Below, one piece after another: positions 11,979-26,664 of a stretch of 29,867 bases of DNA (positions are counted from its first letter, which is position 1; each line of letters opens with the position of its first letter). Both the position numbers and the translations under genes were made by a program. The notes under the pieces were generated by a model. That model was not told the DNA's origin, did no database searches, and worked only from the letters and a program-made list of their open reading frames with translations. The stretch comes from Pedosphaera sp. Lineage in GTDB: Bacteria > Verrucomicrobiota > Verrucomicrobiia > Limisphaerales > SIBH01. Location of the stretch: contig JANOQV010000150.1 of the NCBI GenBank assembly GCA_031414955.1, positions 1 to 29,867 of the forward strand, read 5' to 3'.

Positions 11979-13217
11979 GTGGATTTCACGCCCTACCTGG
12001 TCGTGCTGGGTGTTTTGGTTTTTGCCGCGGTGAGCTTCTTCTTCGCGCTCGCCGAGTCCGCCCTGTTCACGCTGGGCAAATGGCAAGTCGAGCAACTCGC
12101 TGAACGGGCACCGCAGCGAGGCGCGGTCGTCGCGCGGCTGCTGCAACAACCCTCCGAATTGCTCGCCACGATCGTACTCGGCAACACCGTCGCCAATGCC
12201 CTGGTCGTGGCCATTGGTCTAGGCGTGACCCTTTGGCAGGGCGGATCGGTGCCGGGCATGGTCGGGGCGTTGGCGGTGCTCATCCTGGTCGGCTGCGAGG
12301 CACTGCCCAAGACACTGGCCGTGCGCTCACCGGAGACGTGGTCATTGCGCGTGGCCCGGCCGATGTCGTGGCTGCACGGCCTCACGCGACCGGTGCAGCG
12401 CCTGGCCACGGCCCTGAACAACTTGGTTCTGCAAGGTGTGCTGGCCCGCGCGATCAAGCCGCAGACCGTGGCGACGGAGGATGATTATCGCGAACTGCTG
12501 GAAGTGGCTGCGCAGCACGGCGCGCTGGCGGTGCGCGAAAAGGAGATCATCTTCGAGATCATCAGCCTGGACAAACGCACCGCCGCCGATGCCATGACGC
12601 CACGTTCCCGCATGTCCTCCATCCCGGATGACCTCACCGTGGAGCAAATGATCGTCGAGGCCCGCCGGCTGCGCCACCGGCACTTGCCCATGTATGACGA
12701 GACGCCGGACACCATCGTGGGCGTGCTCGACACGAAGAAGCTGTTGCTCGACCCGGGCGTGGATCTGGCCGAGGCGATCGAATTCCCGTCCTTCGTTCCG
12801 GAGAGCATGAACCTGCTCAAGCTCTTCCTCGCCTTGCAGCGCCAGCGCCGCGGCATCGCCATCGTGATGGATGAATTTGGCGGCACGGCCGGCGTGGTCA
12901 CGATGGAGGATATTCTGGAGGAACTGGTGGGGGAGATTCACGACGAAGATGAAACCCAGCATTTCGTCATGGAGAAGATTGGGCGCGAGCGTTGGCGCGT
13001 GGGCGGCGTGGTGGCGGTGCGGGATTTTCGCCGCGAATGTCCGGACATTGGTGACGTCCCGGAGGTGGAGACGCTCGGCGGATTGGTCACCATGCTCCTG
13101 GATGTGGTGCCAAGCCTGGGCGAGTCGGTGAATTTTCGCGGCCTGAAACTCACCGCTGCGCGCGTGGACGACCGGGCTGTGCGCGAGGTGACCGTCGAAC
13201 GGTTGGTGAAGCGATGA
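11979..13217 (+). CDS. CNNM (DUF21)-CBS-CorC/HlyC hemolysin-family membrane protein
   Basis: FFALAESALFTL, LLATIVLGNT, EALPKTLA, MTPR, VMDEFGGTAGVVTMEDILEELVGEI and ETLGG motifs. Confidence 0.93.
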   Translation: MDFTPYLVVLGVLVFAAVSFFFALAESALFTLGKWQVEQLAERAPQRGAVVARLLQQPSELLATIVLGNTVANALVVAIGLGVTLWQGGSVPGMVGALAVLILVGCEALPKTLAVRSPETWSLRVARPMSWLHGLTRPVQRLATALNNLVLQGVLARAIKPQTVATEDDYRELLEVAAQHGALAVREKEIIFEIISLDKRTAADAMTPRSRMSSIPDDLTVEQMIVEARRLRHRHLPMYDETPDTIVGVLDTKKLLLDPGVDLAEAIEFPSFVPESMNLLKLFLALQRQRRGIAIVMDEFGGTAGVVTMEDILEELVGEIHDEDETQHFVMEKIGRERWRVGGVVAVRDFRRECPDIGDVPEVETLGGLVTMLLDVVPSLGESVNFRGLKLTAARVDDRAVREVTVERLVKR

Positions 13218-14197
13218 ACTCCGCCTTCCTCATCTTCATCGCCCTCGGCCTCGGGCTGTCGTTCTTCTTCTCCGGGATGGAGGCGGGCGTATTCGCCTTG
13301 AGCCGGGTGCGCATCCGGCGCCTGGTACGTTCGGGTAATGCCAACGCGCGGCGTTTGAGCCGTTACCTCGATCATCCCGAGGAGTTTCTCTGGACGATCC
13401 TGGCCGGCAACACCCTGGCCAATTTCGCCGTCGCCAGTTTCGTGGTCCTGTTGCTGGGCGAGTGGGCGCGCTCGCATCCGGCGCTCTTCGTGGGCGCGTT
13501 TCTTCTCGGGGCTCTGGTGTTCTACGCGGCCTGCGAACTGTTTCCCAAGATGCTCTTCCGGCTCTATCCAAACAGGTTGTGCCTGCTTTTCTCCCGGCTG
13601 TTCAGCGTCCTGCACTTCTTTCTGCGTCCCATTGTGGCCCCGCTGCGCTGGCTCTCCACGGGATTGCTGCGCTGGTCCGGCGGGCAGACTTTTCAGGCTC
13701 AGGTCTTCGGCACGCGGGAGGAGTTGCGTGTCCTCATGCAGGATTCGGCCCAGGAACTTTCCTCCGAGGAGCGCGGCATGATCAACAGGGTGCTCGATCT
13801 GCAAAACCTCACCGTTTCCCACATCCTTGTGCCCATGCCGCGCGCCGTGACCGTGAACATGGACACCCTCGTGACCGAGGCTCTGGCCTTGTGTCGCGAG
13901 CGCGGACTGAGCCGTCTTCCCGTCTGGCGCTCGGACGGGGACACCCGTCGCATCGCCGGCGTCTTTAACCTCAAGTCGCTGCTCTATCGCGAGGATCTTG
14001 ATCCGGCCAAACGCGCCCGTGACTACGTGAAACCCGCCGCCTTCGTCGATGCCGACATGCGGCTCGACGAGGCCATGAGACATTTGCAGCGCGCGGGCCA
14101 GCGCCTCGCCATTGTGCTCACTCGCGACGGTCGTGAGATCGGCATCGTGAGCCTGCAAGATCTGCTCAAGGCGGTTTTCGGCGAGGTGAAGCTGTGA
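13214..14197 (+). CDS. CNNM (DUF21)-CBS protein lacking the CorC/HlyC domain
   Basis: SFFFSGMEAGVFAL, ILAGNTLAN, ELFPK and GIVSLQDLLKAVFGE motifs. It overlaps both neighbours by 4 nt. Confidence 0.9.
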   Translation: MNSAFLIFIALGLGLSFFFSGMEAGVFALSRVRIRRLVRSGNANARRLSRYLDHPEEFLWTILAGNTLANFAVASFVVLLLGEWARSHPALFVGAFLLGALVFYAACELFPKMLFRLYPNRLCLLFSRLFSVLHFFLRPIVAPLRWLSTGLLRWSGGQTFQAQVFGTREELRVLMQDSAQELSSEERGMINRVLDLQNLTVSHILVPMPRAVTVNMDTLVTEALALCRERGLSRLPVWRSDGDTRRIAGVFNLKSLLYREDLDPAKRARDYVKPAAFVDADMRLDEAMRHLQRAGQRLAIVLTRDGREIGIVSLQDLLKAVFGEVKL

Positions 14198-15528
14198 ACG
14201 CCGACGAGTTCATGGGCATCTTCTGGCGGCTCTTTTCCGTGGGTGTACTCGTGATCCTCAACGGCTTCTTCGTGGCGGCGGAATTTGCCCTGGTCAAAAT
14301 CCGCGACACCCAACTCCAGCCGCTCATCCGGCGCGGGCACAAGCGCGCCCGCATTGCCCGGCATGTGCTGCAAAACCTGGATCGCTCCCTCAGCGCAGCG
14401 CAACTCGGCATCACTCTGGCCAGTTTGGGGCTGGGCTGGATCGGGGAACCGGTCTTCGCCAAACTGCTGCAACCGCTCTCGGGCATCTTGAACATTCAGT
14501 CTGAGGCGGCCCAGCACACGCTGTCTTTCATCGTCGGGTTTACTCTGATCACCTTCCTGCACATTGTGGTCGGGGAGCAGGCGCCGAAATGGATGGCCAT
14601 CCAAAAACCTTTGCCCACCGCGCTTTGGATTGCGGCTCCGCTCCGCTTCTTTGGCTGGATCACTTTTCCCTTCATCTGGGTGCTGAACAACGCGTCGCTC
14701 TGGTTCCTGCGGCAGATCGGACTCGAATCTGGCGGCGAATCTGAGCACGCCCATTCTGAAGATGAGTTGCGGCTGCTCGTGGCCACCAACCAGTCCCACG
14801 ATGTCGGCTCTCTCGGGCGAAATCTCGTGCTCAACGCCTTCGATCTCCGCCGCCGCGTGGCCCGCGAGGTGATGCGACCGCGCCGGGAAATCACCTCGTT
14901 CGACAGCGAGGCCACCATCGAACAATGCCTGGAGCAGGCCGAACAAAGCCGCTTCTCTCGCTACCCGATTCTTGAACGGGGCGATCTCGATCGTGCGCTG
15001 GGCTTCGTGCATGTGAAAGATTTGTTTGCGGCGCGAGCCCGCGCACGAACCGCCCGTGATCTTGTCCCCTCGGCCAAGAAGCTGGTCTATGTGCCCGAGA
15101 CCTCGCACCTGGACCGGTTGCTGCAGATTTTTCTCGAACGCAAAGTTCATCTGGCCTTTGTCGTGGACGAATACGGCGGCACCGTCGGGCTGGTCACGTT
15201 GGAAAACATTATCGAGGAACTGGTCGGGCAAATTCAGGATGAGTTCGATCATGAGAAGCCCTTGCTTGTCAAATCGGATGCCAGCACCTGGTCAGTGGAT
15301 GGCGCGCTGCCCTTGCACGATCTCGCCGCCCTGGTCGGGGAAACTTTGGCCGAGGAAGGCGTCACCACCGTGAGCGGTTGGGTCACGCACCGGCAGGGCG
15401 GCTTTCCGAAGGAGGGAGACGTGTTGAGCATAGGAGCCTTTCACCTGGCCGTGAAGGAAATGGACGGGACGCGCGTGGCGCAGTTGACCCTCAGGCGGCT
15501 GGAGCAGTCATCGGAAGGTGTCGCTTGA
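14194..15528 (+). CDS. CNNM (DUF21)-CBS-CorC/HlyC hemolysin-family protein (TlyC/PaeA-like)
   Basis: LNGFFVAAEFALVKIR, QLGITLASLGLGWIGEP, GEQAPK and VVDEYGGTVGLVTLENIIEELVG motifs. Confidence 0.94.
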   Translation: MNADEFMGIFWRLFSVGVLVILNGFFVAAEFALVKIRDTQLQPLIRRGHKRARIARHVLQNLDRSLSAAQLGITLASLGLGWIGEPVFAKLLQPLSGILNIQSEAAQHTLSFIVGFTLITFLHIVVGEQAPKWMAIQKPLPTALWIAAPLRFFGWITFPFIWVLNNASLWFLRQIGLESGGESEHAHSEDELRLLVATNQSHDVGSLGRNLVLNAFDLRRRVAREVMRPRREITSFDSEATIEQCLEQAEQSRFSRYPILERGDLDRALGFVHVKDLFAARARARTARDLVPSAKKLVYVPETSHLDRLLQIFLERKVHLAFVVDEYGGTVGLVTLENIIEELVGQIQDEFDHEKPLLVKSDASTWSVDGALPLHDLAALVGETLAEEGVTTVSGWVTHRQGGFPKEGDVLSIGAFHLAVKEMDGTRVAQLTLRRLEQSSEGVA

Positions 15529-16017: not shown

Positions 16018-16047
16018 AAAATGGCGACCCTACCGGGAATCGAACCC
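16018..16047 (-). repeat. att site: displaced 3' fragment of tRNA-Glu
   Basis: Identical to 26586-26615, covering part of the T arm, the acceptor 3' strand and CCA. Confidence 0.95.
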
Positions 16048-16283
16048 AATTCCCGTCAGGGAACCTGTGGGAACACTTGGGAATCATTGGGGAATCTTCG
16101 CCCACTGTGGGAACCAAGGGGAACCATCAGAAAGGGATTCGTCAGTTTTTGTCAGTGTACGATTGTTGGAAGATTCTTCAGTGACCCAGTGATCGGTCGA
16201 AAACCCACTTCCACCACTGCGAACATTGGTCTTCGCGAACATTTGATGGCGTTTTTGAGAGGCTGACGTTCCCCGTCAGGGGA

Positions 16284-16514
16284 ATGAACAAGCATAACGA
16301 CGAACCACACGGCGCTAAGACGGAGGGCACGGAAAGGCGGTACATCACCAAGCGCCAAGCGGCAGAGATGCTTGGCGTGACTCCACGTTGCATCACGAAC
16401 TTCATGCAACGTCGGTTGATCCCCTTTTACCGCCTCGGCGGCAAAATGGTGCGCTTCGACCCGTTGAGCATCCGCGAACATCTGGAAGCCAACTGCAAAT
16501 TCGAGAAGCGATGA
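16284..16514 (+). CDS. Excisionase/AlpA-like HTH protein
   Basis: RYITKRQAAEMLGVTPRCITNFMQRRLIPFYRLGGKMVRFD is an HTH_17/Xis pattern, and the gene lies next to att. Confidence 0.85.
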   Translation: MNKHNDEPHGAKTEGTERRYITKRQAAEMLGVTPRCITNFMQRRLIPFYRLGGKMVRFDPLSIREHLEANCKFEKR

Positions 16515-17032
16515 ACGCATCACCACCCTTCCATGAGGCTATGGACACCGCGAAAACCGAGGGCGTTGATCCCCTTTACGACGGCCATCAAGGGTTCGAC
16601 TGGGAGACAGTCGAGCGTGCCCTTGGTGAGATCGAGGATGGGCTAGATGATGAAGCGCAGCGCCAAAAGTTGCGTGTCGCCCTTGCTGAAATTCTCCGCT
16701 TCATCTGTGGCGTGCGACTCAGGCCGGGCGCAGACGCATGGATCGGGCGGCGCTGCATTGCTCTCTGCTGGGTTGTAAACCCTGAGCTTTTTGGCGGCGT
16801 GTCGCTCACGAAGCTCGCGGAATCCATCGGCCATCACAAGATGGCACTCAGCCCGAAAGCCGCCGATGCGACGCGCAAATTCAATGTGAGGAATCGTTTT
16901 CAGGCTCACGGCTGGCAACACAATCAGCAACGGCAGTCGGCGAGATCCACCAACCCATTGCCAGAAGACGCGGAGACGGATGAGGAAAACAAACCCGACC
17001 AACACGGGGCGGAGGGTGAAGACGATGGGTGA
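16511..17032 (+). CDS. Hypothetical protein, possible C-terminal HTH
   Basis: ATGA-coupled to xis. SLTKLAESIGHHKMALS is HTH-like, followed by an acidic tail. Confidence 0.7.
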   Translation: MNASPPFHEAMDTAKTEGVDPLYDGHQGFDWETVERALGEIEDGLDDEAQRQKLRVALAEILRFICGVRLRPGADAWIGRRCIALCWVVNPELFGGVSLTKLAESIGHHKMALSPKAADATRKFNVRNRFQAHGWQHNQQRQSARSTNPLPEDAETDEENKPDQHGAEGEDDG

Positions 17033-17732
17033 CTCACAGACAGAAAACAACCCGCAGGCCAAAGGCACCATGCGGGCTGATGAGGGTTCAACTCACAACA
17101 CGGGACACGTCAAGGCCGGCCACGGCTTGCCGTTTATTCCGGCTTGGCTGGATGACCTCCGCCTGGATGCCTTCCAGTTCCTCGTTTACGCCCACGTCGC
17201 GCGGCGCGCTGGCGGCAAGGGCACATGCACTGAGTCACTTCCCAACATGGCAGCGTTTCTGAAGCTCGACGATAAGACCGTGCGTTCGCGCCTCCAGAGC
17301 CTGGTTGCGCTTGGCCTTCTTGGAAACGAATACGTAGCGGGCAAGGGTGCCCGCTATTGGCTTCTCCCAAACCCCTCCCGCCAGACGGCAGACAAAGGTT
17401 CTCCCCTTCTTAAGGTTCTCCCTGAAGGTTCTCCCTTGAAGGGTAGCGGCGCGAAAACGCCGCCAGCGTCGCGGAAGAAATTACCGGAACCTGATGACGC
17501 GTGGCTGAACGGATTGGCAACTGCCCCTGCATACCTCGGCATCGACGTGCGCAGGGAGTTCTCCAAAATGCTCCTTTGGTGCGAAGTGAAAAGTAAGAAG
17601 CCCAGCCGTGGCAGATTTCTCAACTGGATTAACAAGATCGAACTGCCGATGCGCCCGGCCATGCCAGCACAGCCAGCGACACAACAGCTTCCACTCACGC
17701 CCCACGATCCCAACGACAGGAAACGAATATGA
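17025..17732 (+). CDS. Phage-type replication initiator (N-terminal wHTH, internal iterons)
   Basis: FLVYAHVARRAG...CTESLPNMAAFLKLDDKTVRSRLQSLVALGLL is HTH_36-like, with a C-terminal ...FLNWINK. It lies directly upstream of a DnaC-like gene. Confidence 0.75.
   Translation: MGDSQTENNPQAKGTMRADEGSTHNTGHVKAGHGLPFIPAWLDDLRLDAFQFLVYAHVARRAGGKGTCTESLPNMAAFLKLDDKTVRSRLQSLVALGLLGNEYVAGKGARYWLLPNPSRQTADKGSPLLKVLPEGSPLKGSGAKTPPASRKKLPEPDDAWLNGLATAPAYLGIDVRREFSKMLLWCEVKSKKPSRGRFLNWINKIELPMRPAMPAQPATQQLPLTPHDPNDRKRI
17395..17435 (+). repeat. Three direct repeats AAGGTTCTCCC, candidate origin iterons
   Basis: Exact copies at 17395-17405, 17412-17422 and 17425-17435 within the initiator linker. Confidence 0.7.
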
Positions 17733-18667
17733 CCGACACACCAAAACCCAACACCACAGACTTACTGATGAACGCGGCCTTGGCCGTCCGCGCCGAACAA
17801 GATCGCCGGACTGCCGATGCGGCCGGCAAGGCTCCACAGAGCGCGGCTGAAATCGTGGCGGAAACCGAAAGCCGAATGGCTCAGGTTCAAGCGAGCCACG
17901 CGGAGAAGCGGCAACGCCTTCGGGAATGGCTTGCACCACTCCCACAAACCGACGTGTGCCCCGTGCATGGCTGTGAGCGGGAAATCAGCCTGGAGCTTTC
18001 CTACGAGACACAGTGCAACGTGGCACGGAAAGACCGTCACGAAGGGTTAAGCAACGGCACGTTCTTTGCCGAGTACGCGTGCCCCAAGTGTGAGCGGGAA
18101 GCGACTTACTTCCAGTGGCAGCGTCTCGGTATCCCAGAAAAGTATTGGGGCGAGACACTCGACGTTCTGAGCTATGACACGGAGAAGTGCAGGGAACACC
18201 TTAAACTCTGCCGTGCTTACGAAGCCAACCCGCGAGGCTTTCTGCTTCTGCTCGGGAATCCCGGCACAGGCAAGACACATGCGGCGTGTGCCATCCTCGG
18301 CAAGCACGGGGCGGGATGGTTCACCAGCCAGTCCGATTTGATCGTTGCCATGCGCGAACGCTACAACAACCCGGCCCTTCTAAACGTGCGGGCGAAGGCA
18401 ATCACCGCTCCGCTGCTTGTGATAGATGAAATCGGCGTGGCGAGTGGCGGAAATGATGCGGCGACGATCTTGTTCGACGTGATCAACGCGAGATACGCCA
18501 GTAAGCGCCCCCTCATCCTGACTAGCAATGTTCCCCGCGAGGAACTGCTACGGAACCTCGGCCATCGCGTCTTGGATCGCATCGGCGAAGCAGCCTTTGC
18601 CGTGCTCAAGTTCGACGAGCCAAGCAAGCGGGCACAGGCCAACGAGCGATACTTGGAGGGCTTCTGA
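17729..18667 (+). CDS. DnaC/IstB-like AAA+ helicase loader
   Basis: Walker A GNPGTGKT, Walker B LLVIDE, INARY...PLILTSN and RVLDRI. N-terminal Cys motifs CPVHGC and CPKC. Confidence 0.9.
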   Translation: MTDTPKPNTTDLLMNAALAVRAEQDRRTADAAGKAPQSAAEIVAETESRMAQVQASHAEKRQRLREWLAPLPQTDVCPVHGCEREISLELSYETQCNVARKDRHEGLSNGTFFAEYACPKCEREATYFQWQRLGIPEKYWGETLDVLSYDTEKCREHLKLCRAYEANPRGFLLLLGNPGTGKTHAACAILGKHGAGWFTSQSDLIVAMRERYNNPALLNVRAKAITAPLLVIDEIGVASGGNDAATILFDVINARYASKRPLILTSNVPREELLRNLGHRVLDRIGEAAFAVLKFDEPSKRAQANERYLEGF

Positions 18668-19072
18668 TGCGCTGTAGCCACGACGCATTGAGCGATGCTG
18701 GCAGGCACGCTAGGTTTTTCATGCAGATACGCCGCGATTCTCCAAAAAATCTTGTCGAAGGAATCTTTTGTTTTTCAGTGAGCCACGGGGGTTGGGCGTC
18801 AAGGGGGAATCCATCTGGATTCGGCATTTTTGGGGTGTCCCATGAAACAAAACCAAATCAGGCCAGCACGAAACGCACAAACATTGTGCGAATACACGAT
18901 CTGAACGGTTCAGCCCAGGTGCTCAAGGGACATCGACTCCGCAACTCGGCTCTCTGAGGCCGAAGGTGGAGCGGCCCGGCGACTGGCGACCGTTCCACAG
19001 GGAACAAAGCCCGGCGTCCCATGTCCCGCCCACCACGCCGGGAAGTGGGCTTTACGTTCCCGCTTAGACGAC

Positions 19073-19279
19073 ATGCAAACATTTGTAAGTCTCGAAACAC
19101 TTAGCCGCAGGGTGAACCGATGTGGCGCGACGCTGCGCTCCCGGATCGTGGACGGCACGATCACGCCGGACGCTATTGTCATCGCGGGGGCCAAGGAAAT
19201 GATGGTGTTCGATTCGGCGAATCTGCCGGCCATCCGTGCGGCCCTGAACCCAAAGAACGAACCGGCTGTCATCGTATGA
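19073..19279 (+). CDS. Small MerR-like/wHTH DNA-binding protein
   Basis: VSLETLSRRVNRCGATLRSRIVDGTITPD...VFDS. ATGA-coupled to the next gene. Confidence 0.55.
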   Translation: MQTFVSLETLSRRVNRCGATLRSRIVDGTITPDAIVIAGAKEMMVFDSANLPAIRAALNPKNEPAVIV

Positions 19280-19992
19280 GCGTGGTCGCCAAAAATCCAC
19301 ACTGGGGAAAAACCGACTGCGAGGCGCAGATCGAGTTACTCCAAGCCGAGGCGTCGAAACTCGAAGTGGAGTTGCGCGCATCGGGAAAGCCGGTGTCTCA
19401 ATTCTTCGCGCCAAGCGATTCGTTCGACATCGTTGCTCTGTGCGACGCGCTGGAGGCCCGCGTGGTTCAGTTGAAGATGCAAGCAAAGTTGCCCCGCGTT
19501 GAGATCACTGCGCCCACTCTCACGCCTGCCCCGGCTCCCGTCGTGACGCCACCCGCGCCGCGTCTCACGTCGTTCACGCCAGACCGCTACGGCCCGGCGT
19601 TGATCGATGCCACGCTCGCGACGGCGGAGGCAAGGGTTGCCGCCCTGGAGTCCGTGATCGTGCGCGCTGGGGGAACGCCGCCGCGCTTCTTCGACCACGG
19701 AGCGCCGTGCAAGGACATCAAGGCCAAGTTGCTCGAATCACACGCCGAGAAGCTCGAAGAATTTTGCGCGGAGCGCGGGGTTTCACTCCCGTCGCGACTC
19801 CCCAACACCAAGGAGAAAACCAGCATGAGTCAGCAATACACAGGTGCCACCGCGAAGGTGTTGGCATCCCAAACCACAGCAACCGCCGTGGAAGTGCCCA
19901 AGGCCAACGACAAGGGCGAAAAACTTTCGGCCACGGAGCGATGCAGGCTCGCGGCGCAACAGCGTGACGAGGCCAAGACCAAGAAGAAGTAA
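19276..19992 (+). CDS. Hypothetical helical protein with internal repeats and a Pro-rich linker
   Basis: Start at MSVVAKNP by ATGA overlap. Natural composition with a Lys-rich end. Confidence 0.7.
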   Translation: MSVVAKNPHWGKTDCEAQIELLQAEASKLEVELRASGKPVSQFFAPSDSFDIVALCDALEARVVQLKMQAKLPRVEITAPTLTPAPAPVVTPPAPRLTSFTPDRYGPALIDATLATAEARVAALESVIVRAGGTPPRFFDHGAPCKDIKAKLLESHAEKLEEFCAERGVSLPSRLPNTKEKTSMSQQYTGATAKVLASQTTATAVEVPKANDKGEKLSATERCRLAAQQRDEAKTKKK

Positions 19993-20002
19993 GGAGCAAC
20001 CC

Positions 20003-20509
20003 ATGAAACCAATCACACAATCGCCGGAAGGCTTCGATGTCCCTGCCGATCCAGAGGACGAACGACGCGAACTCACTGAAACCGCCGTAGCCGCTGCGGT
20101 GAAGCCCCAAGCCGCTGTTCCGGTCACAGCGGACGCACCGCCAGCGCAGGCCGGCGAGGATGTCGCCCCCGAACCCGTCGCGCCTGCCGCGCCAGTGATG
20201 CGCTTTCCCGAACGGAAAGAGCAGGTGATTGACGCCGAGGACATGGAGACATTTCCGCCCGGCCTGGCGCAGTCGTTTGCGATTCTGAACGTGCGCCAAC
20301 TGGAGTACGACAACCTGCTCGACAAAGCGCCGAGGGCAGCACAGCGCAAGGCGTTGGCGCGGCTCAATAGAATTCGCGCCCACTGCGGCCAGATACAGCA
20401 GGGGCTTCCCTTGCTCACTGGCGGGCCGCGCCCGGACCCGAACAACCATCCCGCCATTGAGCGACTTCAGAAGCGCATCGTTATCGCGACTGCGCCAGCC
20501 ACGACCTAA
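20003..20509 (+). CDS. Hypothetical protein with an acidic, Pro/Ala-rich N-terminus
   Basis: AAGGAG RBS before the ATG at 20003; operon position. Confidence 0.7.
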   Translation: MKPITQSPEGFDVPADPEDERRELTETAVAAAVKPQAAVPVTADAPPAQAGEDVAPEPVAPAAPVMRFPERKEQVIDAEDMETFPPGLAQSFAILNVRQLEYDNLLDKAPRAAQRKALARLNRIRAHCGQIQQGLPLLTGGPRPDPNNHPAIERLQKRIVIATAPATT

Positions 20510-20533
20510 ACCACAACCGATTGAGGAAAGATC

Positions 20534-21076
20534 ATGAGTAAGAAAAATCCGAAGCTCGACATCACGGGCCATCAAAATGTCATCACCGCTCTTGGCGTCG
20601 CGCGGGCCAAGCAGGACGCGTATCTGAGCACACTGATTGAGCACGAACCGATTCTCGACCCCGAGAACAACGCCAAGGCACACCGCCGCGCCATTGAGCA
20701 AGAAGGGAAAGCTGACCGCATCGTGGAATTGGCCGAGAAGATGAATTCCCTGTCAGGGCCGGGCCTTGCAGCGGCAAAGGCCAGGGCCGAAGGCATCTGC
20801 GGACAGGCGCAACTGGCGCTCAGGGCCACAATGACGCCTCTACTCGACGCGGCGTTTGATGTGCTCGCTGAACTCCGCACGGAAGCGCGCCTCGCTGAGA
20901 GTGAGTTCCTTTGCGAGTTTGGCTTGGCTTACGAAGTCACGGGAGTCAGTCGCCGCCTCGACAAGATGGAGTTCGACCTGAAGAACTTCCGCGATGGGCT
21001 GGCGGTGCATCAGGCTTTCCTGATCTTGGTGCCGAACGCCTTCGCGCACTATCTCGATTGGTTCACTGCCGAGTAA
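20534..21076 (+). CDS. Hypothetical helical protein immediately upstream of the tape measure gene
   Basis: GAGG RBS, helical heptad-like composition and operon position. Confidence 0.75.
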   Translation: MSKKNPKLDITGHQNVITALGVARAKQDAYLSTLIEHEPILDPENNAKAHRRAIEQEGKADRIVELAEKMNSLSGPGLAAAKARAEGICGQAQLALRATMTPLLDAAFDVLAELRTEARLAESEFLCEFGLAYEVTGVSRRLDKMEFDLKNFRDGLAVHQAFLILVPNAFAHYLDWFTAE

Positions 21077-21103
21077 TCGGATCAACACTCAATCGGTTGA
21101 CAC

Positions 21104-23545
21104 ATGAGCAACGTCATCGAAGCAAAGCTGAAGCTGTCGGGTCTGGCGCAGACGGAGGCGGGCTTGCGTTCGTTGGGTCACTCGCTCGACGTGCTGAAGC
21201 ACAGCGCGTTTGGCGGAGTGGCGGCGTTGAGCGTGGTTGGTCTGTTCGAGTTCGTTAAGTACGCGGCGATTGCGGCGGACACCGTGGGCGACGTGGCGGA
21301 GGCGTTGGGAACCACGTCAGAGGCGATGTCGCAACTCGAGTACGCGGCGAAGCTGTCCATCGACGAGCTTCGGGTGTTCGGGCGCTTCTTCTCGTCGTGG
21401 CAATCGGAACACGGGCAGGGTGGAACGGGACTGACGGAGGGGTTGATCCAGACGGCGGAACTTTTCCAGAAAATCCCGGACGGCGCGGACAAGGCGAGCA
21501 TCGCGGTGGAGCGTTTCGGGCGGAGTGGTCTGGAAATGATCGAGTTCCTGAACAAGGGACCGGAGGAAGTTCGCCGGCTGTTGAACGAGGCGGGACGGTA
21601 TGGGTTGGTGAGTGAGGAAGCCTCGAAGCGGTCGGATGCGTTTGAGACTTCGACCAAGCATCTGACGTACGCGCAGAAGCAGCTTTCGATTCAGATCGGG
21701 CAGGTGTTCATCCCGAGGATGAAGGCGCTGGTGGATGCCACGACGGAGGCGGCGGGAGGTTTCACGCGGTTGCTCCAGGGTTCGGAAGCAGCACGCGGCG
21801 GCTTCGAGGCACTGAGTTACGCGGCAGTGGCGGCGGCGGCGGCGGTAGCGGTGAAAAAGGTTGGGGCGTTGACTGGGTTCGCGGCGGCGGCAGGGACAGC
21901 AGCCAAGGCCATCGGAGTTCTCGGCGCTGGCGTGGTGGGTTGGATCGGTGGCAGGGCGCTCGGCAGCGTCGAGTTGTTCGGGAAGTCCATCAACGACCAT
22001 GTGGTTGCAACGATTGTCGCCGCGCAACTGGCGTGGGAGAAGTTGAAGGCGAGCATGGGCGCGGACAACGGCGCGTTCATCGCACAGTTGGAGGAAGAAC
22101 TTTCCAAGCTGTTGTTCAAAACCGCCGAGGCGGTTTCGCCAGAGGCACGCGGCGTGAAGACGGGTCTGCTCACTGACGGCGTGAAGTCCAAGCAAGACTT
22201 CGAGGATCGGATGAAGCTGTTGGCGGTGCAGCAGGATGAAGCGACCAACGAGTCGGCGCTGAATCAGATCGTGATGCGGGGCAATGCGTTGTCCGAAGAA
22301 CGGTGGAAAAACTACCGCGCAGGCGTCGATGGTGTGAGCGCGAAGCTCAAGCTGATCGATGAAGCCGAGCAGAAAACTTTCCTGTCGAAGTCAGAAGCGG
22401 ACGCGCTGCGGCTGAAGGCGAACAAGGAATATCTGGCTCTGCAAAAGCAGGCGTTCGAGCTTAACGCGGATGAGGCCAAGGCCGAGATCAAATCGATCAA
22501 TGATAGAGTGGAGGCGGAGGAACGGTTCGCCGCGCTCCGGATCGAACTCATTCAGAACAGCGACGGGCTTTCCAGTGACGAGAAGCGCCTAGCCATCATC
22601 GACGAACAGAACCGGCTTTACGGGTTCATCGTGGAAAAGGTGCGCTATCTGCGCGAGGGCGTGCAGGGCACCGAGAATCGGGACGTGGGGGAAGCGTTCA
22701 GTTCGGCGGCGGATGCGCTGGATCGAAAGTCGGAGGGCGTGGCCGGTGAGAACGGAAAGACGGAACGGACGCTTCGCACGGAGAACTTGGGCGATCAAAT
22801 GGGGGCGGCGATGAAGCAGCTTCGCGAGGAAGCGGGGACGGTTGCGGAGGCGATTGCACGGACGTTCAAGAATGTGATCGGAGCGGCCATCAGTTCGATT
22901 TCCTCGGGCATCTCGGGATTGATCAAGGGGACAATGACTTGGGGGGAAGTGTTGCTGAACATCGGCACGTCCGTCATGGATGCCTTGATCGACTCGGTTG
23001 TTACCTACGTGATCAAATGGATCACCGGGCACACCGCGATGGAAGCGGCATCGTCCGCTTTGAGCGCGTTGAAAATCTCGCTGGGCTGGGCGGAGAGCGC
23101 GGCGCAAATCGCGGCGAGCGTCGCCACTTTGCCAACGCTCGCGATTCAGGCTGTGCTGGCGGCTATCGGAAGCTACGGCACGGCAGCGGTGGTGGGCATC
23201 GCGCTGCTGGTGGCAGGGCTGGGCGTGGGCATCGCGGCGGCGACGGGGGCGTTTGCGGAGGGCGGCTACACGGGCGGAGGCGGGAAGTATGAGCCTGCCG
23301 GGGTAGTGCATCGCGGCGAGTGGGTTATGCCACAGGAGACGGTGAACCGTTACGGTCTGTCTGGGATGCAGGCGATCCAGGATGGCAGCGCGCCGAGCGG
23401 TGGGGGTCAGGGCGGCGGCAGCAAGGTCACGGTGGCGATCTTCGACGAGCGTTCCAAGTCGCAGATGAAGCAATTCATGGAGGAGCGGGAGTTTGAGGAT
23501 CGGGTGGTTCAGATCGTTGGAAGGAACGGGCACCGACTCGCATGA
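21104..23545 (+). CDS. Phage tail tape measure protein (lambda gpH-like C-terminus)
   Basis: 813 aa, Ala/Gly-rich and helical, with a TMP core (GDVAEALGTTSEAMSQLEYAAKLS...FGRSGLEMIEFLNKG) and hydrophobic segments. The C-terminal FAEGGYTGGGGKYEPAGVVHRGEWV motif resembles lambda gpH. Confidence 0.88.
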   Translation: MSNVIEAKLKLSGLAQTEAGLRSLGHSLDVLKHSAFGGVAALSVVGLFEFVKYAAIAADTVGDVAEALGTTSEAMSQLEYAAKLSIDELRVFGRFFSSWQSEHGQGGTGLTEGLIQTAELFQKIPDGADKASIAVERFGRSGLEMIEFLNKGPEEVRRLLNEAGRYGLVSEEASKRSDAFETSTKHLTYAQKQLSIQIGQVFIPRMKALVDATTEAAGGFTRLLQGSEAARGGFEALSYAAVAAAAAVAVKKVGALTGFAAAAGTAAKAIGVLGAGVVGWIGGRALGSVELFGKSINDHVVATIVAAQLAWEKLKASMGADNGAFIAQLEEELSKLLFKTAEAVSPEARGVKTGLLTDGVKSKQDFEDRMKLLAVQQDEATNESALNQIVMRGNALSEERWKNYRAGVDGVSAKLKLIDEAEQKTFLSKSEADALRLKANKEYLALQKQAFELNADEAKAEIKSINDRVEAEERFAALRIELIQNSDGLSSDEKRLAIIDEQNRLYGFIVEKVRYLREGVQGTENRDVGEAFSSAADALDRKSEGVAGENGKTERTLRTENLGDQMGAAMKQLREEAGTVAEAIARTFKNVIGAAISSISSGISGLIKGTMTWGEVLLNIGTSVMDALIDSVVTYVIKWITGHTAMEAASSALSALKISLGWAESAAQIAASVATLPTLAIQAVLAAIGSYGTAAVVGIALLVAGLGVGIAAATGAFAEGGYTGGGGKYEPAGVVHRGEWVMPQETVNRYGLSGMQAIQDGSAPSGGGQGGGSKVTVAIFDERSKSQMKQFMEEREFEDRVVQIVGRNGHRLA

Positions 23546-23892
23546 AGAACAACGCACAGCATCAACTTTACGCTTTCGGCTACAACGTCCGCCCGACGCC
23601 AAAGCACCCGGCATTTGGAGAAATCCAAACCGCCGTGTTGTGGGTGTTCATGGTGGGTGATCCCGGAATCACCGTCGCGAACTACCGGGCAAGCAGCCCG
23701 TTCAAGATCTCCGTGTTCGCCATCCCGACGCACCTGTACGAGATGGTGAACGACGTTGTTGGCTTCAACACGATCAAGGATGGCGAACGGCTCAAGCCCA
23801 AGGCGGCAGACAAGGCTGCGGACGCGGCGCGAGTGGTAGGAGTTGGCTTCTATCTGAACTGCGCTCCGGGATCAGTAATCACGCCAGACTAG
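23542..23892 (+). CDS. Hypothetical protein
   Basis: ATGA-coupled to the TMP stop and followed by a GC hairpin at ~23901-23927. Confidence 0.65.
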   Translation: MKNNAQHQLYAFGYNVRPTPKHPAFGEIQTAVLWVFMVGDPGITVANYRASSPFKISVFAIPTHLYEMVNDVVGFNTIKDGERLKPKAADKAADAARVVGVGFYLNCAPGSVITPD

Positions 23893-24000
23893 AAATGATT
23901 TTCCCGCGCGCCTGTCGCGCGGGGGAAGCCCGGTGCGGTCACTCAGTCATCAGCCCGCCAGTCGAGAGTGGCCACAACATATTGCACCGGGCACTCTTTG

Positions 24001-24035
24001 AAACGAAACGGCCCCGGAGTGATGTCCGGGGCCGT
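24001..24035 (-). terminator. Intrinsic terminator between convergent transcription units
   Basis: ACGGCCCCGGA (24008-24018) pairs with TCCGGGGCCGT (24025-24035), with a T-rich tail on the minus strand. Confidence 0.7.
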
Positions 24036-24055
24036 GCGCTTCCTGTGTCTCTGGT

Positions 24056-24430
24056 TTACTGTGCGGCGGGCGCTGGGGCGTAACCGATCACCATATGGCG
24101 CATCGCCACACAGGCACGGTATCCCATATCGTCACCGGCTTCGTGCGTCGTGACTCTGGCGCAGTTGTCGAGCAACCAGCGGTAGAAGTTCAGGGCGGAT
24201 TGCGTGGTGGTTCGCCCCAGCCGGGCCGGTGCCTCGCTGAGCGTCAGATACATCACCCCACGGCGCGTGGCGATGATTTCACCGCCAGGGGTCGTAACGA
24301 CGGGCTGAAGCCCTTGGCGGCGACACTGGCGAAGCGCGGCGCGTTCCTGTGGGGTTTGCGTGGTGGGAGTTCTGCCGGGCAACTGGCGGTTGAACCGTTC
24401 AACGGACACTGACTTCTTAATGGTCTTCAT
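24056..24430 (-). CDS. Hypothetical protein
   Basis: Start at MKTIKKS after an A-rich leader. A terminator follows the stop and a promoter-like TACAAT lies upstream. Confidence 0.55.
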   Translation of the reverse strand: MKTIKKSVSVERFNRQLPGRTPTTQTPQERAALRQCRRQGLQPVVTTPGGEIIATRRGVMYLTLSEAPARLGRTTTQSALNFYRWLLDNCARVTTHEAGDDMGYRACVAMRHMVIGYAPAPAAQ

Positions 24431-24639
24431 AGCTTTCTGTTTGTTCGTGCGACTTCCTGCCGGGAACATCCCGGAGGTTACATCGCGGCCAGTCATACTT
24501 AACTGACTAATGACCATTGTAGGTTGGAATGATGTATCTACAACACTAATCAAAGTGGGGACATGTAATTACAAAAACCGTAATTACGTGTAGTTACTCG
24601 CAGAGTATTCCGAGTATTCGGACAACGTGCAATCGGTTG

Positions 24640-25164
24640 TCAGCAGTGGCAGAGTTGCAGGCGTGACTTGAGCTTGAGCAGGTTACTTGTCCGTCCGTGC
24701 TCGTAACGGGTGACAGCCGGGTTGCGGAGCATGAGTCCTTCGCCGTCGCCGTCGAGAACCGAGGCCAGCATGGAGGCCAGCGCGCTCCGGGAGCGGATGG
24801 GTTGCGCGTCCAGCGTGAAGGCGTGCGCGCATCCGGCGAGTTTGGCACTTGCGGCGGCAAGACGCTCAGGATAGCCGCCCATGACACCGGGGGCATCGAA
24901 CACGGGGAAGGAGCAACGGCGCGTCCAGCGGCCATACTGCACGGCGGCGCGGGCTTCCTCAAAGCGTCCACGGCCACACCACACGCCACCATCCAGAGCG
25001 AAGCCTTGGGGCAGACCAGCCGTCAACCATGCCGGGGCCGCGATGGCGTTGCCGTCGCGTGTCCAGAGCTGGCGACCGTCCCAGTAGGCGCGCACGTCTT
25101 CCACCTTTTCCGTGGCGAGCCAGCCGATCACGCGCTGGCCCGCGTAATCGGTGCCGAGTGTCAT
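24640..25164 (-). CDS. ATP-dependent DNA ligase adenylation domain only, with degenerate motifs (possibly a pseudogene)
   Basis: GWLATEKVEDVRAYWDG (motif I, canonical EKLDG), ALDGGVW (motif III, canonical DGELW), VFDAP, GEGLMLR and LLKLK. It stops before the OB domain. Confidence 0.8.
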   Translation of the reverse strand: MTLGTDYAGQRVIGWLATEKVEDVRAYWDGRQLWTRDGNAIAAPAWLTAGLPQGFALDGGVWCGRGRFEEARAAVQYGRWTRRCSFPVFDAPGVMGGYPERLAAASAKLAGCAHAFTLDAQPIRSRSALASMLASVLDGDGEGLMLRNPAVTRYEHGRTSNLLKLKSRLQLCHC

Positions 25165-25183
25165 GGAGGATTCGTTGATCAAA

Positions 25184-26527
25184 TCAGCCCTCCGCCTGTT
25201 GCAACGTCGGCATTTCCTCGTCACCGGACGGGACGATGCTGAACCACACGTCCGCTTGCTTGCGTGTAACGAGTTCCCGGTAGTGCTGGAAAATCATCGT
25301 GGGGCTGTTGCCGGCTTCCAGCGCAACCTGATTCACGTTCTGAGTCTGGGCTACCCGGTACGAGATGAACGAGTGTCGCAGGCCGTTGTCTTTCAGCTTC
25401 ATGGCTTCAACCGTGGCACTGCCCGTCGCCGCGGCTACCTCGCGGAGTCGCTGATGGAAGTAAGCGTGCCCGAGTTCCCACACCAAGCCGGACTTCTGCG
25501 CTATCGGTGTCAGCCACGTCGCCAGATTGTCCGTGATCGGAACCACGCGCCGGGAGGCAGTCTTGGCCTTGCCCGCCTTCACTTCGATGAACCGCTCGGC
25601 AAGGTTCACTTCGCTCCAGTCGAGCCGCTCAATCTCCGCGCTCCGCAGGCCGGCGAACGCACCGATGACGAACACCGGCAAAATATCATCGTCCGCAGCC
25701 TGCAACAGCCGGTCAATCTCACCCGTGCTGTAGATTTCGATCTCACCACCCTTGTCCTTCACCGGCTCGATTCCGCTCAAGTCGTCGTGATCGAACGGCA
25801 GGAGCCTGCGCGCCTTTGCGAATTCAAACAGCCGGTTGATCGCCCCGAGGTAATTGTTGTGGGAGCGACCAGACAGCGCGTGAGAAGTCGTGCCCTTCCC
25901 ACCGTCTTCGTTCCGCGTGGTTCTGAGGCCAGCGAGGAAGCCGCGCACGTCGTCGGCACTCACTGCGGCAATCGGGCATTGGAACGCATCAGCGAACTTG
26001 CCCGCCCGATGCTCCAAATCCTGAATGTAGCGGTCGCTCAACTTTCGGGCGTGTGCGTCGGCGATCAACATGTCGTAAACTTCAGTGACACTCTTGTTCA
26101 CCGCGATCTTGGCGTGGCGCTTCTGATAATACTTTGCGGCTTCGATCACCAAATCCCCACCGAGGATCTTCACTGCTTCGGCGAAGTGGCGCGCCGCGAT
26201 GGGGAGCGCGATGCCAGTGGGCTTCACCAACTCGACCGAATGCAGGTAGTCCGTCGCGTCCCGGTTCGTCATCACATGAGCCGCCACGTCGCCCCGTGCG
26301 AGTTGGGTCGCAATCTTCGCGGCAGCGGCCCTGGCTTCCTGTTCGTCCGCGAACGTGCGGAGCTTGCGCTTCCCGCTGCTGTAGTCGGCAACTTGGAAGT
26401 GGATGCGCCTCACTTTGGTTCCGTCTTTGAGGCTGGAGTTCGCTTGGACGCGGTAGATTTTGACGGTGATATTCCCGTTGTCCGGTGACTGGATTACTAT
26501 CGGTTTTGGCTTCGATTTCTGTTTCAT
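25184..26527 (-). CDS. Tyrosine recombinase/integrase
   Basis: FAGLRSAEI, KAKT, NGLRHSFISY and AGNSPTMIFQHY catalytic motifs, with an N-terminal arm-binding region. It lies adjacent to the tRNA att. Confidence 0.95.
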   Translation of the reverse strand: MKQKSKPKPIVIQSPDNGNITVKIYRVQANSSLKDGTKVRRIHFQVADYSSGKRKLRTFADEQEARAAAAKIATQLARGDVAAHVMTNRDATDYLHSVELVKPTGIALPIAARHFAEAVKILGGDLVIEAAKYYQKRHAKIAVNKSVTEVYDMLIADAHARKLSDRYIQDLEHRAGKFADAFQCPIAAVSADDVRGFLAGLRTTRNEDGGKGTTSHALSGRSHNNYLGAINRLFEFAKARRLLPFDHDDLSGIEPVKDKGGEIEIYSTGEIDRLLQAADDDILPVFVIGAFAGLRSAEIERLDWSEVNLAERFIEVKAGKAKTASRRVVPITDNLATWLTPIAQKSGLVWELGHAYFHQRLREVAAATGSATVEAMKLKDNGLRHSFISYRVAQTQNVNQVALEAGNSPTMIFQHYRELVTRKQADVWFSIVPSGDEEMPTLQQAEG

Positions 26528-26589
26528 GGGTAGGATTGTCAGGTTTTTGTCAGGTTTTGACAAGACCAACATGAAACCCCTTTAGAAAA

Positions 26590-26664
26590 TGGCGACCCTA
26601 CCGGGAATCGAACCCGGGCTACCTCCGTGAAAGGGAGGTGTCCTAACCGCTAGACCATAGGGTC
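26590..26664 (-). tRNA. tRNA-Glu(TTC)
   Basis: Acceptor stem GACCCTA/TAGGGTC, anticodon arm CCTCC-CTTTCAC-GGAGG, T loop GGTTCGATTCC and encoded CCA. Confidence 0.97.

Follow-up and report, generated by a model that had tools for sequence, protein, structure and literature searches.

A small tRNA-integrated, satellite-type element of Pedosphaera sp. with an intact tail tape measure gene and a cos-like site

Why should a 10.6-kb chromosomal island in which no capsid, portal or terminase gene can be recognised keep an intact gene for a phage tail tape measure protein (TMP)? This question is raised by contig JANOQV010000150.1 of Pedosphaera sp. (assembly GCA_031414955.1), whose whole stretch of 29,867 nucleotides, hereafter the window, was analysed. 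The island is very probably a genuine satellite-type element. The reading favoured here, with clear reservations, is that of a cos-type satellite resembling the phage-inducible chromosomal islands (PICIs), which would be packaged by lambda-like siphophages and would place its own TMP into the borrowed tail.

The island is bounded by an exact 30-bp direct repeat (coordinates of all features are given in Table 1), the sequence of which is the 3' end of tRNA-Glu(TTC), and the two copies are the only ones in the 6.55-Mb, 313-contig host genome (G000). Therefore the attachment (att) repeats are intact, as an earlier sequence-only reading of this DNA had stated. Its other structural observations were likewise borne out: the integrase belongs to the Phage_integrase/phrog_1 family, xis, orf2, rep and dnaC are coupled with overlaps of 4-8 nt, and a second operon contains o68, o238, o168, o180, an uninterrupted gene for an 813-residue TMP, and then o116. 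Thirteen open reading frames (ORFs) occupy the 10.6 kb without frameshifts or gene stubs. Profile searches of all thirteen against Pfam and PHROGs at E<=0.1 gave no capsid, portal, large-terminase, tail-tube, baseplate or lysis match, in agreement with that reading, and seven had no match of any kind; the sole terminase match was a weak helix-turn-helix (HTH) likeness of xis to phrog_57 (E 0.0023). A ligase-like gene, three iterons inside rep and a cos-like site had been overlooked. The element was also recovered, att to att, as a single 10,598-bp contig in run X1; X1 and X2, which contain it, are freshwater-sediment metagenomes and possibly the samples from which it came.

The element belongs to a recurring family. 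A TMP search covered 401 genomes of the order, 51 of which matched, G000 included, and 40 TMP loci, drawn from 35 of the 50 further matching genomes, were compared: 28 prophage morphogenesis regions, six loci with Mu-like transposase genes beside the TMP, and six small elements without further tail genes, four of which have both att repeats. Eleven complete att-bounded elements, including this one, measure 9,045-11,419 bp between att starts and are inserted at Glu, Pro, Phe, Lys, Ser, Met and Thr tRNAs and at tmRNA. The common gene order, shared in parts, is orf2, rep/dnaC, optional small terminase subunit (TerS), o68, o238, o168, o180, TMP. When profiles were made from positional equivalents in leave-one-out fashion, the window's o68, o238, o168 and orf2 were recovered at E 1e-17 to 3e-22; this is mildly circular, since each window protein had been part of the alignment before its removal. 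Elements sharing parts of the layout for which the earlier reading had suggested a search do exist, at 9.0-11.4 kb. As the layout is repeated at several different tRNAs, and the TMPs compared gave no prophage that could be a close parent, this is not a lone deletion derivative, and the objection to simple prophage decay stands. Some relatives carry genes that the window lacks, namely TerS (L048, L058, L071, L072, L074, L084, L088), an S49 protease (L034, L077), or protease and capsid together (L054); therefore, the family appears to act on the head pathway too. No description of this family was found in the literature searched, which was largely without subscription journals.

Intergenic DNA connects these elements with a class of phages. 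The first 12-mer of the cos-like site was found by comparing intergenic DNA; in G000 it has a single copy, inside the element, and control loci amounting to 718 kb contain no copy of the motif. Fourteen of 19 satellite loci have it, L047 nearly matches it, and L072 and L078 are truncated at contig ends; it further occurs in six of ten stretches upstream of lambda-A-type terminases (phrog_15 family), where it lies just after an orf2 homolog, and in none of eight upstream stretches of prophages with Mu-type heads. In two phage contigs it lies 0.1-0.3 kb before TerS and the large terminase subunit (TerL), in several satellites it also abuts TerS, and in six prophages it lies 3-8 kb before TerS. 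In lambda, the 7-mer GGGTCCT, which we take to be cosQ, precedes by 23 nt the genome end to which the 12-nt left end is joined; in the element, GGAATCT is found 23 nt before the second 12-mer, a spacing equal to that of the lambda end-to-end junction. A cosQ/cosN/cosB layout has been described (PMC6092414). The site is likely the cos site of the helper, and its occurrence in both satellites and lambda-type prophages points to lambda-like phages as the helper class. What is new here, at the level of sequence comparison, is this shared intergenic motif with its lambda-like cos spacing.

The motif may be widespread. When both parts of the pattern were scanned for, 11 loci were obtained in IMG/VR and 96 in metagenomes; of these, 11 are satellite-type, eight have TerL or portal, 26 have some family gene and 62 have none; the 62 without profile match are probably chance occurrences or short contigs. 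A shorter pattern was counted by hand in 172 of the 401 genomes of the order, compared with about 37 for the reversed control, so that there are probably many more cos-bearing islands or prophages. Within the genus, matches in G015 and G098 fell in a host-like region and a primase-type island, with no terminase. The island in G098 (L280:872-6812) has an integrase and an 828-residue primase with the cos-like motif downstream, and is thus of a different replicon type.

The TMP itself is intact and far from any other TMP sampled. Its frame runs 813 codons without a stop and has a strong host-like codon bias. Global identity is 16-26% to 18 other TMPs, so that no close parent has been sampled, and 16-24% to eight other satellite TMPs; local identities reach at most 50% in short segments and 30-45% in longer ones. 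The C-terminal 249 residues are 40% identical to one lambda-type prophage TMP and the remainder is unaligned with it, which fits a retained docking to the helper tail tip combined with a different luminal part. In 11 prophage loci with lambda-type head genes the TMPs have 782-865 residues. Since 95 residues of TMP are expected to correspond to 10-15 nm of tail (PMC12987554), a protein of 813 residues would barely change tail length, and the earlier suggestion of an altered tail length is weakened. According to published accounts, the TMP determines entry through the inner membrane and is the target of the SNIPE defence (PMC13190303), Rta targets TMP or tail assembly (PMC12987554), and tail assembly is a defence target elsewhere (PMC11364771, PMC10884400). 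As the TMP both sets entry and attracts defences, escape or another entry route would be a plausible gain.

Within the family, a TMP is the commonest cargo after o180, being found in 10 of 19 o180-bearing loci (L073 is partial, and L212 may duplicate L058). The satellite TMPs range from 374 to 813 residues, with half-length forms (374-459 residues) in L057, L077 and L084. Two related satellite TMPs from one genome are 90% identical in amino acids; over 200 codons they differ, by hand count, at 53 third, 14 first and nine second positions, which indicates purifying selection in these relatives.

The gene preceding the TMP, o180, is the marker of the family. A three-sequence profile found 140 clusters (50% identity) among 1.84 billion representatives and hits in 17 of the 401 genomes, and a 105-sequence profile confirmed it in 13 of 60 loci, all small elements; weak matches in L080, L082 and L083 were dropped from this count, and a match in G242 lies outside the compared loci. 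It was absent from the tail loci (31) and upstream stretches (20) of prophages and from 52 integrase loci, the prophage DNA compared being morphogenesis regions rather than whole prophages, and a search of 50,697 phage records gave no match to it. With one weak match in 400 other genomes across the phylum, the family is centred on this order. The predicted fold has seven helices, one of 51 residues, at a pLDDT of 96.6. The 105 homologs have no Pfam, PHROG or PDB family in common, and nothing was found in BFVD at E<=0.001. A comparison with the Psu/Sid proteins of P4 gave an Atlas feature match of 0.90 at low recognition and Foldseek rank 3 (E 0.51). Against the Psu fold, VIA gave Z 6.5 and rmsd 6.6 at rank 20, which is the background level; Psu was outside the top 50 of a wide VIA search, and hhalign to single Psu/Sid sequences gave no support. 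o180 may be a new capsid-remodelling protein. It was also considered as a tail chaperone and rejected (only 5.9% against the c5 family; it also occurs without a TMP). An o180-like gene seen by eye in L057 was not confirmed by the profile.

Two further genes of the late operon can be connected with phage heads. A profile made solely from the three prophage post-capsid proteins ranks o168 first among 4,820 host proteins (E 9.9e-6; next 0.45), and the position of the prophage counterparts is that of lambda FI. As lambda gpFI itself o168 was rejected, with no profile match, no Atlas match and no fold match for its own low-confidence model, in which a helical hairpin alone is confident. It is fused to o180 in nine relatives (L058, L071, L075, L077, L078, L079, L081, L084, L212); readthrough in the window was discarded, since two stops and a separate ribosome-binding site intervene between the two genes, which are in the same frame. 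In the case of o238, the C-terminal motif of a prophage protein encoded between protease and capsid matches two relatives (E 1e-8 and 0.0024); the SaPI protein CpmB is described as acting by scaffold mimicry via a shared motif (PMC12409344). A Nu1/Rpp-like identity for o68 was rejected at E 0.056. The claim that the TMP is the only virion gene therefore holds only for what databases name and is otherwise overstated, in that o168 is homologous to a prophage post-capsid gene and, in the family, in that two o238 relatives have the scaffold-position motif and others have TerS, protease or capsid. That the other ORFs might be divergent capsid or terminase proteins drew no such profile match at E<=0.1 beyond the weak xis likeness to phrog_57.

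Under the favoured reading, helper infection or induction would lead to excision by Int and Xis and to replication. Helper terminase, needed because this copy has no TerS, would then cut the cos-like site, and o238, o168 and o180 would act on the helper head, perhaps by making a small capsid or by favouring satellite DNA. The satellite TMP would fill the helper tail tube, loaded by the helper's chaperones, which would be required since none is recognisable in the element. The gain would be a different surface for DNA entry or defence escape rather than a changed tail length.

Several observations weigh against this scheme. The TMP is not a core gene, being absent from the complete elements L075, L076, L081 and L228 and not seen in five partial loci, and the purifying selection was measured in relatives only. 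No ORF matches the PHROG tail assembly chaperones or the two chaperone families of the order, though a remote one is possible. The strict motif is missing from the complete elements L075 and L081 and from four of the ten lambda-type stretches, and the assignment as cos derives solely from where the motif lies and how its parts are spaced. In the window's own o238 the scaffold motif gives no score, and against a shallow 100-sequence Psu profile o180 scores 10.9, within the 9.7-20.3 of shuffled controls. No resident helper is seen, since G000, which is 95.9% complete, drew no match to phrog_15 or phrog_21, and tblastn with TerL, portal and capsid of the order gave none either; there is one weak phrog_2 match (E 2.3e-5). 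Nor is the element amplified over host depth in the assembled contigs of the two runs (X1: 13.9 vs 12.1 for the left flank; X2: 7.2-7.6 vs 6.9-9.4). In both runs contigs break at the 30-bp att repeat, so attP/attB junctions are unreadable there.

The TMP could instead be captured cargo in a variable slot of a cos-type satellite, whose particles would use the helper's TMP. The slot after o180 does hold other cargo in L075, L076, L081 and L228, the spread of satellite TMP lengths and the low identity of the window's copy to the other eight suggest repeated captures, and no chaperone gene accompanies it; nevertheless, the intact, host-biased frame, the third-position divergence of the related satellite TMPs and the fact that TMP is by far the commonest gene in that slot make this unlikely. 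An unlikely explanation too, and a shade more so, is that the TMP is a decoy, titrating helper tail chaperones or tail-tip proteins, spoiling helper tails and so protecting the host population. The partial C-terminal resemblance to a prophage TMP, the half-length TMPs of three relatives and the targeting of tail assembly by known defences (PMC12987554; PMC11364771, PMC10884400) would suit such a role. A decoy, however, has no need of the full helper length that the window TMP keeps, and tmp belongs to the presumed late operon that follows the cos-like site; with no PADLOC match for the eight other ORFs tested, the earlier idea of helper-tail poisoning as a defence has no support yet.

That the island is the remnant of a lambda-type prophage deprived of head and tail genes by deletion is improbable and largely refuted. 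It would account for orf2, the cos-like motif, o168 and TMP having lambda-type prophage counterparts in similar order, and for the lack of activity in the read data, but not for o180, absent from all prophage loci and phage records examined, nor for the convergence of independent elements on 9.0-11.4 kb and one gene order; frameshifts and stubs are lacking, and local TMP identities remain low. Very improbable, finally, is an integrative replicon spreading without a tailed helper, by vesicles or transformation, with the motif as a regulator-binding site. The motif does follow orf2 in most loci, stands 3-8 kb from TerS in six prophages and occurs in more genomes of the order (172 of 401) than have recognised prophages; yet in several satellites it directly adjoins TerS, in two phage contigs it lies close to that gene, its two-part spacing is lambda-like, and no role of a TMP is known apart from tails. 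The favoured reading, a cos-type satellite that would use its own TMP, is retained.

Satellites with their own TMP are already published, namely the PICI-like elements (PLEs) of Vibrio cholerae, the EPIPs and some capsid-forming PICIs (cf-PICIs) (PMC12987554, PMC12822802). The earlier proposal of a satellite that supplies its own tape measure therefore survives as to the satellite, but not as to a different type. The element works most like a cos-type PICI of Gram-negative bacteria, such as EcCICFT073, which is described as lacking TerS and using the helper's cos (PMC6092414): it shares a size of about 10 kb, an integrase, a possible HTH regulator and its own replicon, and it has no TerS, a putative helper-type cos site and, by inference, a lambda-like helper. 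Of the PICI traits, an integrase with a specific att site is present, and for capsid morphogenesis there are no capsid matches, with o168, o238 and o180 as candidates only. Unlike those PICIs, it has Rep and DnaC instead of a primase-replicase, no AlpA, capsid or Rpp match, a tail gene, a conserved operon of unnamed families and a host of Verrucomicrobiota type. The PICI model of SatelliteFinder, as described, forbids tail genes (PMC10085698); with its 813-residue TMP the element is therefore not filed as a PICI, and such elements would be filtered out by this standard search.

In PLEs, TMPs were shown experimentally to be built into chimeric tails and to be needed for transduction (PMC12987554). 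Like the element, PLEs are described there as satellites without capsid genes that encode their own TMP; they differ in their size of about 18 kb, in keeping tmp with tac (and bhuB in PLE11) and in their contractile-tailed lytic helper ICP1. The element has 10.6 kb, no recognisable tail assembly chaperone or hub gene, an inferred temperate siphophage helper and a TMP that is optional in its family; this comparison is by description. The EPIPs of Mycolicibacterium aichiense are alike in size (about 11 kb), TMP and temperate long-tailed helper, and unlike in their serine integrase, TerS, head-tail adaptor and stopper, scaffold and listed capsid gene (PMC12822802); the element has a tyrosine integrase, and the other EPIP proteins are unmatched in it by profile search. 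The cf-PICIs are integrated satellites of similar size, some with tmp (PMC12987554, PMC10085698), but encode capsid, portal and TerL, none of which is in the element. P4-like satellites (record X51522) are alike in being about 11 kb and tRNA-integrated and in their dependence on cos, which is probable for the element, with a late operon (sid-delta-psu) that has a small DNA-binding protein and an all-helical protein of 180-190 residues; in contrast, the element has no alpha primase, and o180 has no profile match to Psu or Sid. The virion-encapsidated mobile elements termed VEIMEs include Verrucomicrobia-associated ones, and a tape measure is not mentioned in the main text of that report, datasets aside (PMC9618062).

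The reason why satellites carry their own TMP has been demonstrated only for PLEs, with a contractile-tailed helper. The present family offers a comparative test, in which the same backbone and cos-like motif are combined with a full-length, half-length or absent TMP, and the motif and o180 are markers by which satellites and the phages that probably help them could be found in this large order of soil and sediment bacteria, most of them uncultured. A bolder and quite tentative possibility is that the family rebuilds both ends of a siphophage, o180 with o168 and o238 shrinking the capsid and a swappable TMP of 374-813 residues setting tail core, entry and escape from TMP-directed defence. If true, chimeric-tail piracy would extend to non-contractile tails and to the Planctomycetes-Verrucomicrobia-Chlamydiae (PVC) superphylum, with a natural TMP-length series.

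Table 1. Features of the element and its insertion site (window positions).
Feature	Position	Strand	Remark
Left att repeat, 30 bp	16018..16047		Copy of tRNA-Glu 3' end
Imperfect short repeats beside att	16065..16127		Possible integrase arm sites
Xis/AlpA-like HTH protein, 76 aa	16284..16514	+	PF12728 (HTH_17) E 7.9e-8; phrog_66
orf2, 173 aa	16511..17032	+	Family common to other satellites and lambda-type prophages
rep, lambda-O-like replication initiator, 235 aa	17025..17732	+	PF13730 (HTH_36); phrog_270/391
Three identical 11-bp repeats inside rep	17395..17435	+	Likely origin iterons
DnaC-like helicase loader, 312 aa	17729..18667	+	IstB; phrog_50 E 5.7e-41
Putative cos-like packaging site	18758..18801	+	Conserved 12-mers at 18758-18769 and 18790-18801
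Conserved motif just 5' of o68	19051..19066	+	Also in 4 other satellites; putative late promoter
o68, small MerR/Xis-like HTH	19073..19279	+	Conserved first gene of late operon
o238, conserved family	19276..19992	+	Candidate scaffold mimic
o168	20003..20509	+	Homolog of gene directly 3' of major capsid gene in three lambda-type prophages
o180, all-helical family marker	20534..21076	+	Candidate capsid-remodelling protein
TMP, 813 aa, intact	21104..23545	+	11 PHROG tape-measure families, best E 2.7e-14
o116, coupled to TMP	23542..23892	+	A single weak homolog, which follows TMP in satellite L054
11-bp-stem hairpin between convergent operons	24008..24035		Likely terminator
o124, accessory ORF	24056..24430	-	No homolog in comparison loci
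Short ATP-dependent DNA ligase-like gene	24640..25164	-	phrog_114 E 2.9e-12
Tyrosine integrase	25184..26572 (start 26527 or 26572)	-	Phage_integrase, phrog_1
Right att repeat	26586..26615		
Intact host tRNA-Glu(TTC)	26590..26664	-	Integration target

The replicon consists of a lambda-O-type rep and DnaC with iterons, without a primase match in Pfam or PHROGs. Besides its HTH_17 match the xis product has a weak MerR_1 match (E 0.075), o68 is weakly MerR/BldC-like, and no AlpA or Stl match was obtained. The orf2 homolog of lambda-type prophages sits immediately 5' of the cos-like motif, and orf2, which has no solved structural relative, is likely a late-gene regulator, judging by its position. 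The ligase-like gene encodes the catalytic domain alone, with motif I altered, and is 42% identical to its counterpart in satellite L077; such catalytic-domain-only genes recur in satellites and motif-bearing contigs (L077, L245, L166, L170, L191, L215, L234). The integrase has 51 relatives in GTDB, mostly labelled Verrucomicrobia, and was rejected as a family marker, as none of 51 genome loci and one viral locus has o180, TMP or motif.

Some relatives differ in layout. The complete element L075 (11542-13264, G093) has head-tail and chaperone-like genes (c14, c12, c5) after o180 and no TMP, and the tRNA-Met-adjacent L054 (186-5771, G149) has the motif, o68, a ClpP-type protease, a major capsid gene, TMP and an o116-like gene, with no portal or terminase in the DNA compared. 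The distal end carries varied cargo, including TIR-like and toxin-antitoxin-like ORFs (L058:13432-14193, L048:6710-7452, L081:10428-12037, L076:3956-9183), and is likely a slot for defence cargo. In the six Mu-like loci (L036, L049, L051, L052, L053, L056; genomes G161, G191, G040, G340, G209, G243) the TMP has phrog_310 (MuA-like transposase) and phrog_296 (MuB-like ATPase) genes as neighbours. Some loci have a capsid, protease or MuF-like gene, none has a terminase or tail tube in the DNA compared, three adjoin a tRNA, and two that were tested gave no clear terminal repeats; these loci may be transposable TMP-bearing satellites.

As for the surroundings of the element, the rpmB neighbours are not syntenic in five same-genus genomes used for an empty-site comparison. 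In both X1 and X2 a contig absent from G000 fuses the att core (window 26586) to other sequence, possibly from another strain, organism or element at tRNA-Glu. A second island of G000 (contig C102, about 62000-78215) lies at tRNA-Gly and has a related integrase (38%) and xis; it carries ORFs that, by eye, resemble a PAPS-reductase, ATPase and ParB-type defence cluster. Also by eye, three paralogous host genes arranged in tandem (11979-15528), to the left of both rpmB and the element, resemble CBS-domain CNNM/CorC transporters, and transposase-like ORFs lie near both contig ends (47-3581 and 29260-29867).

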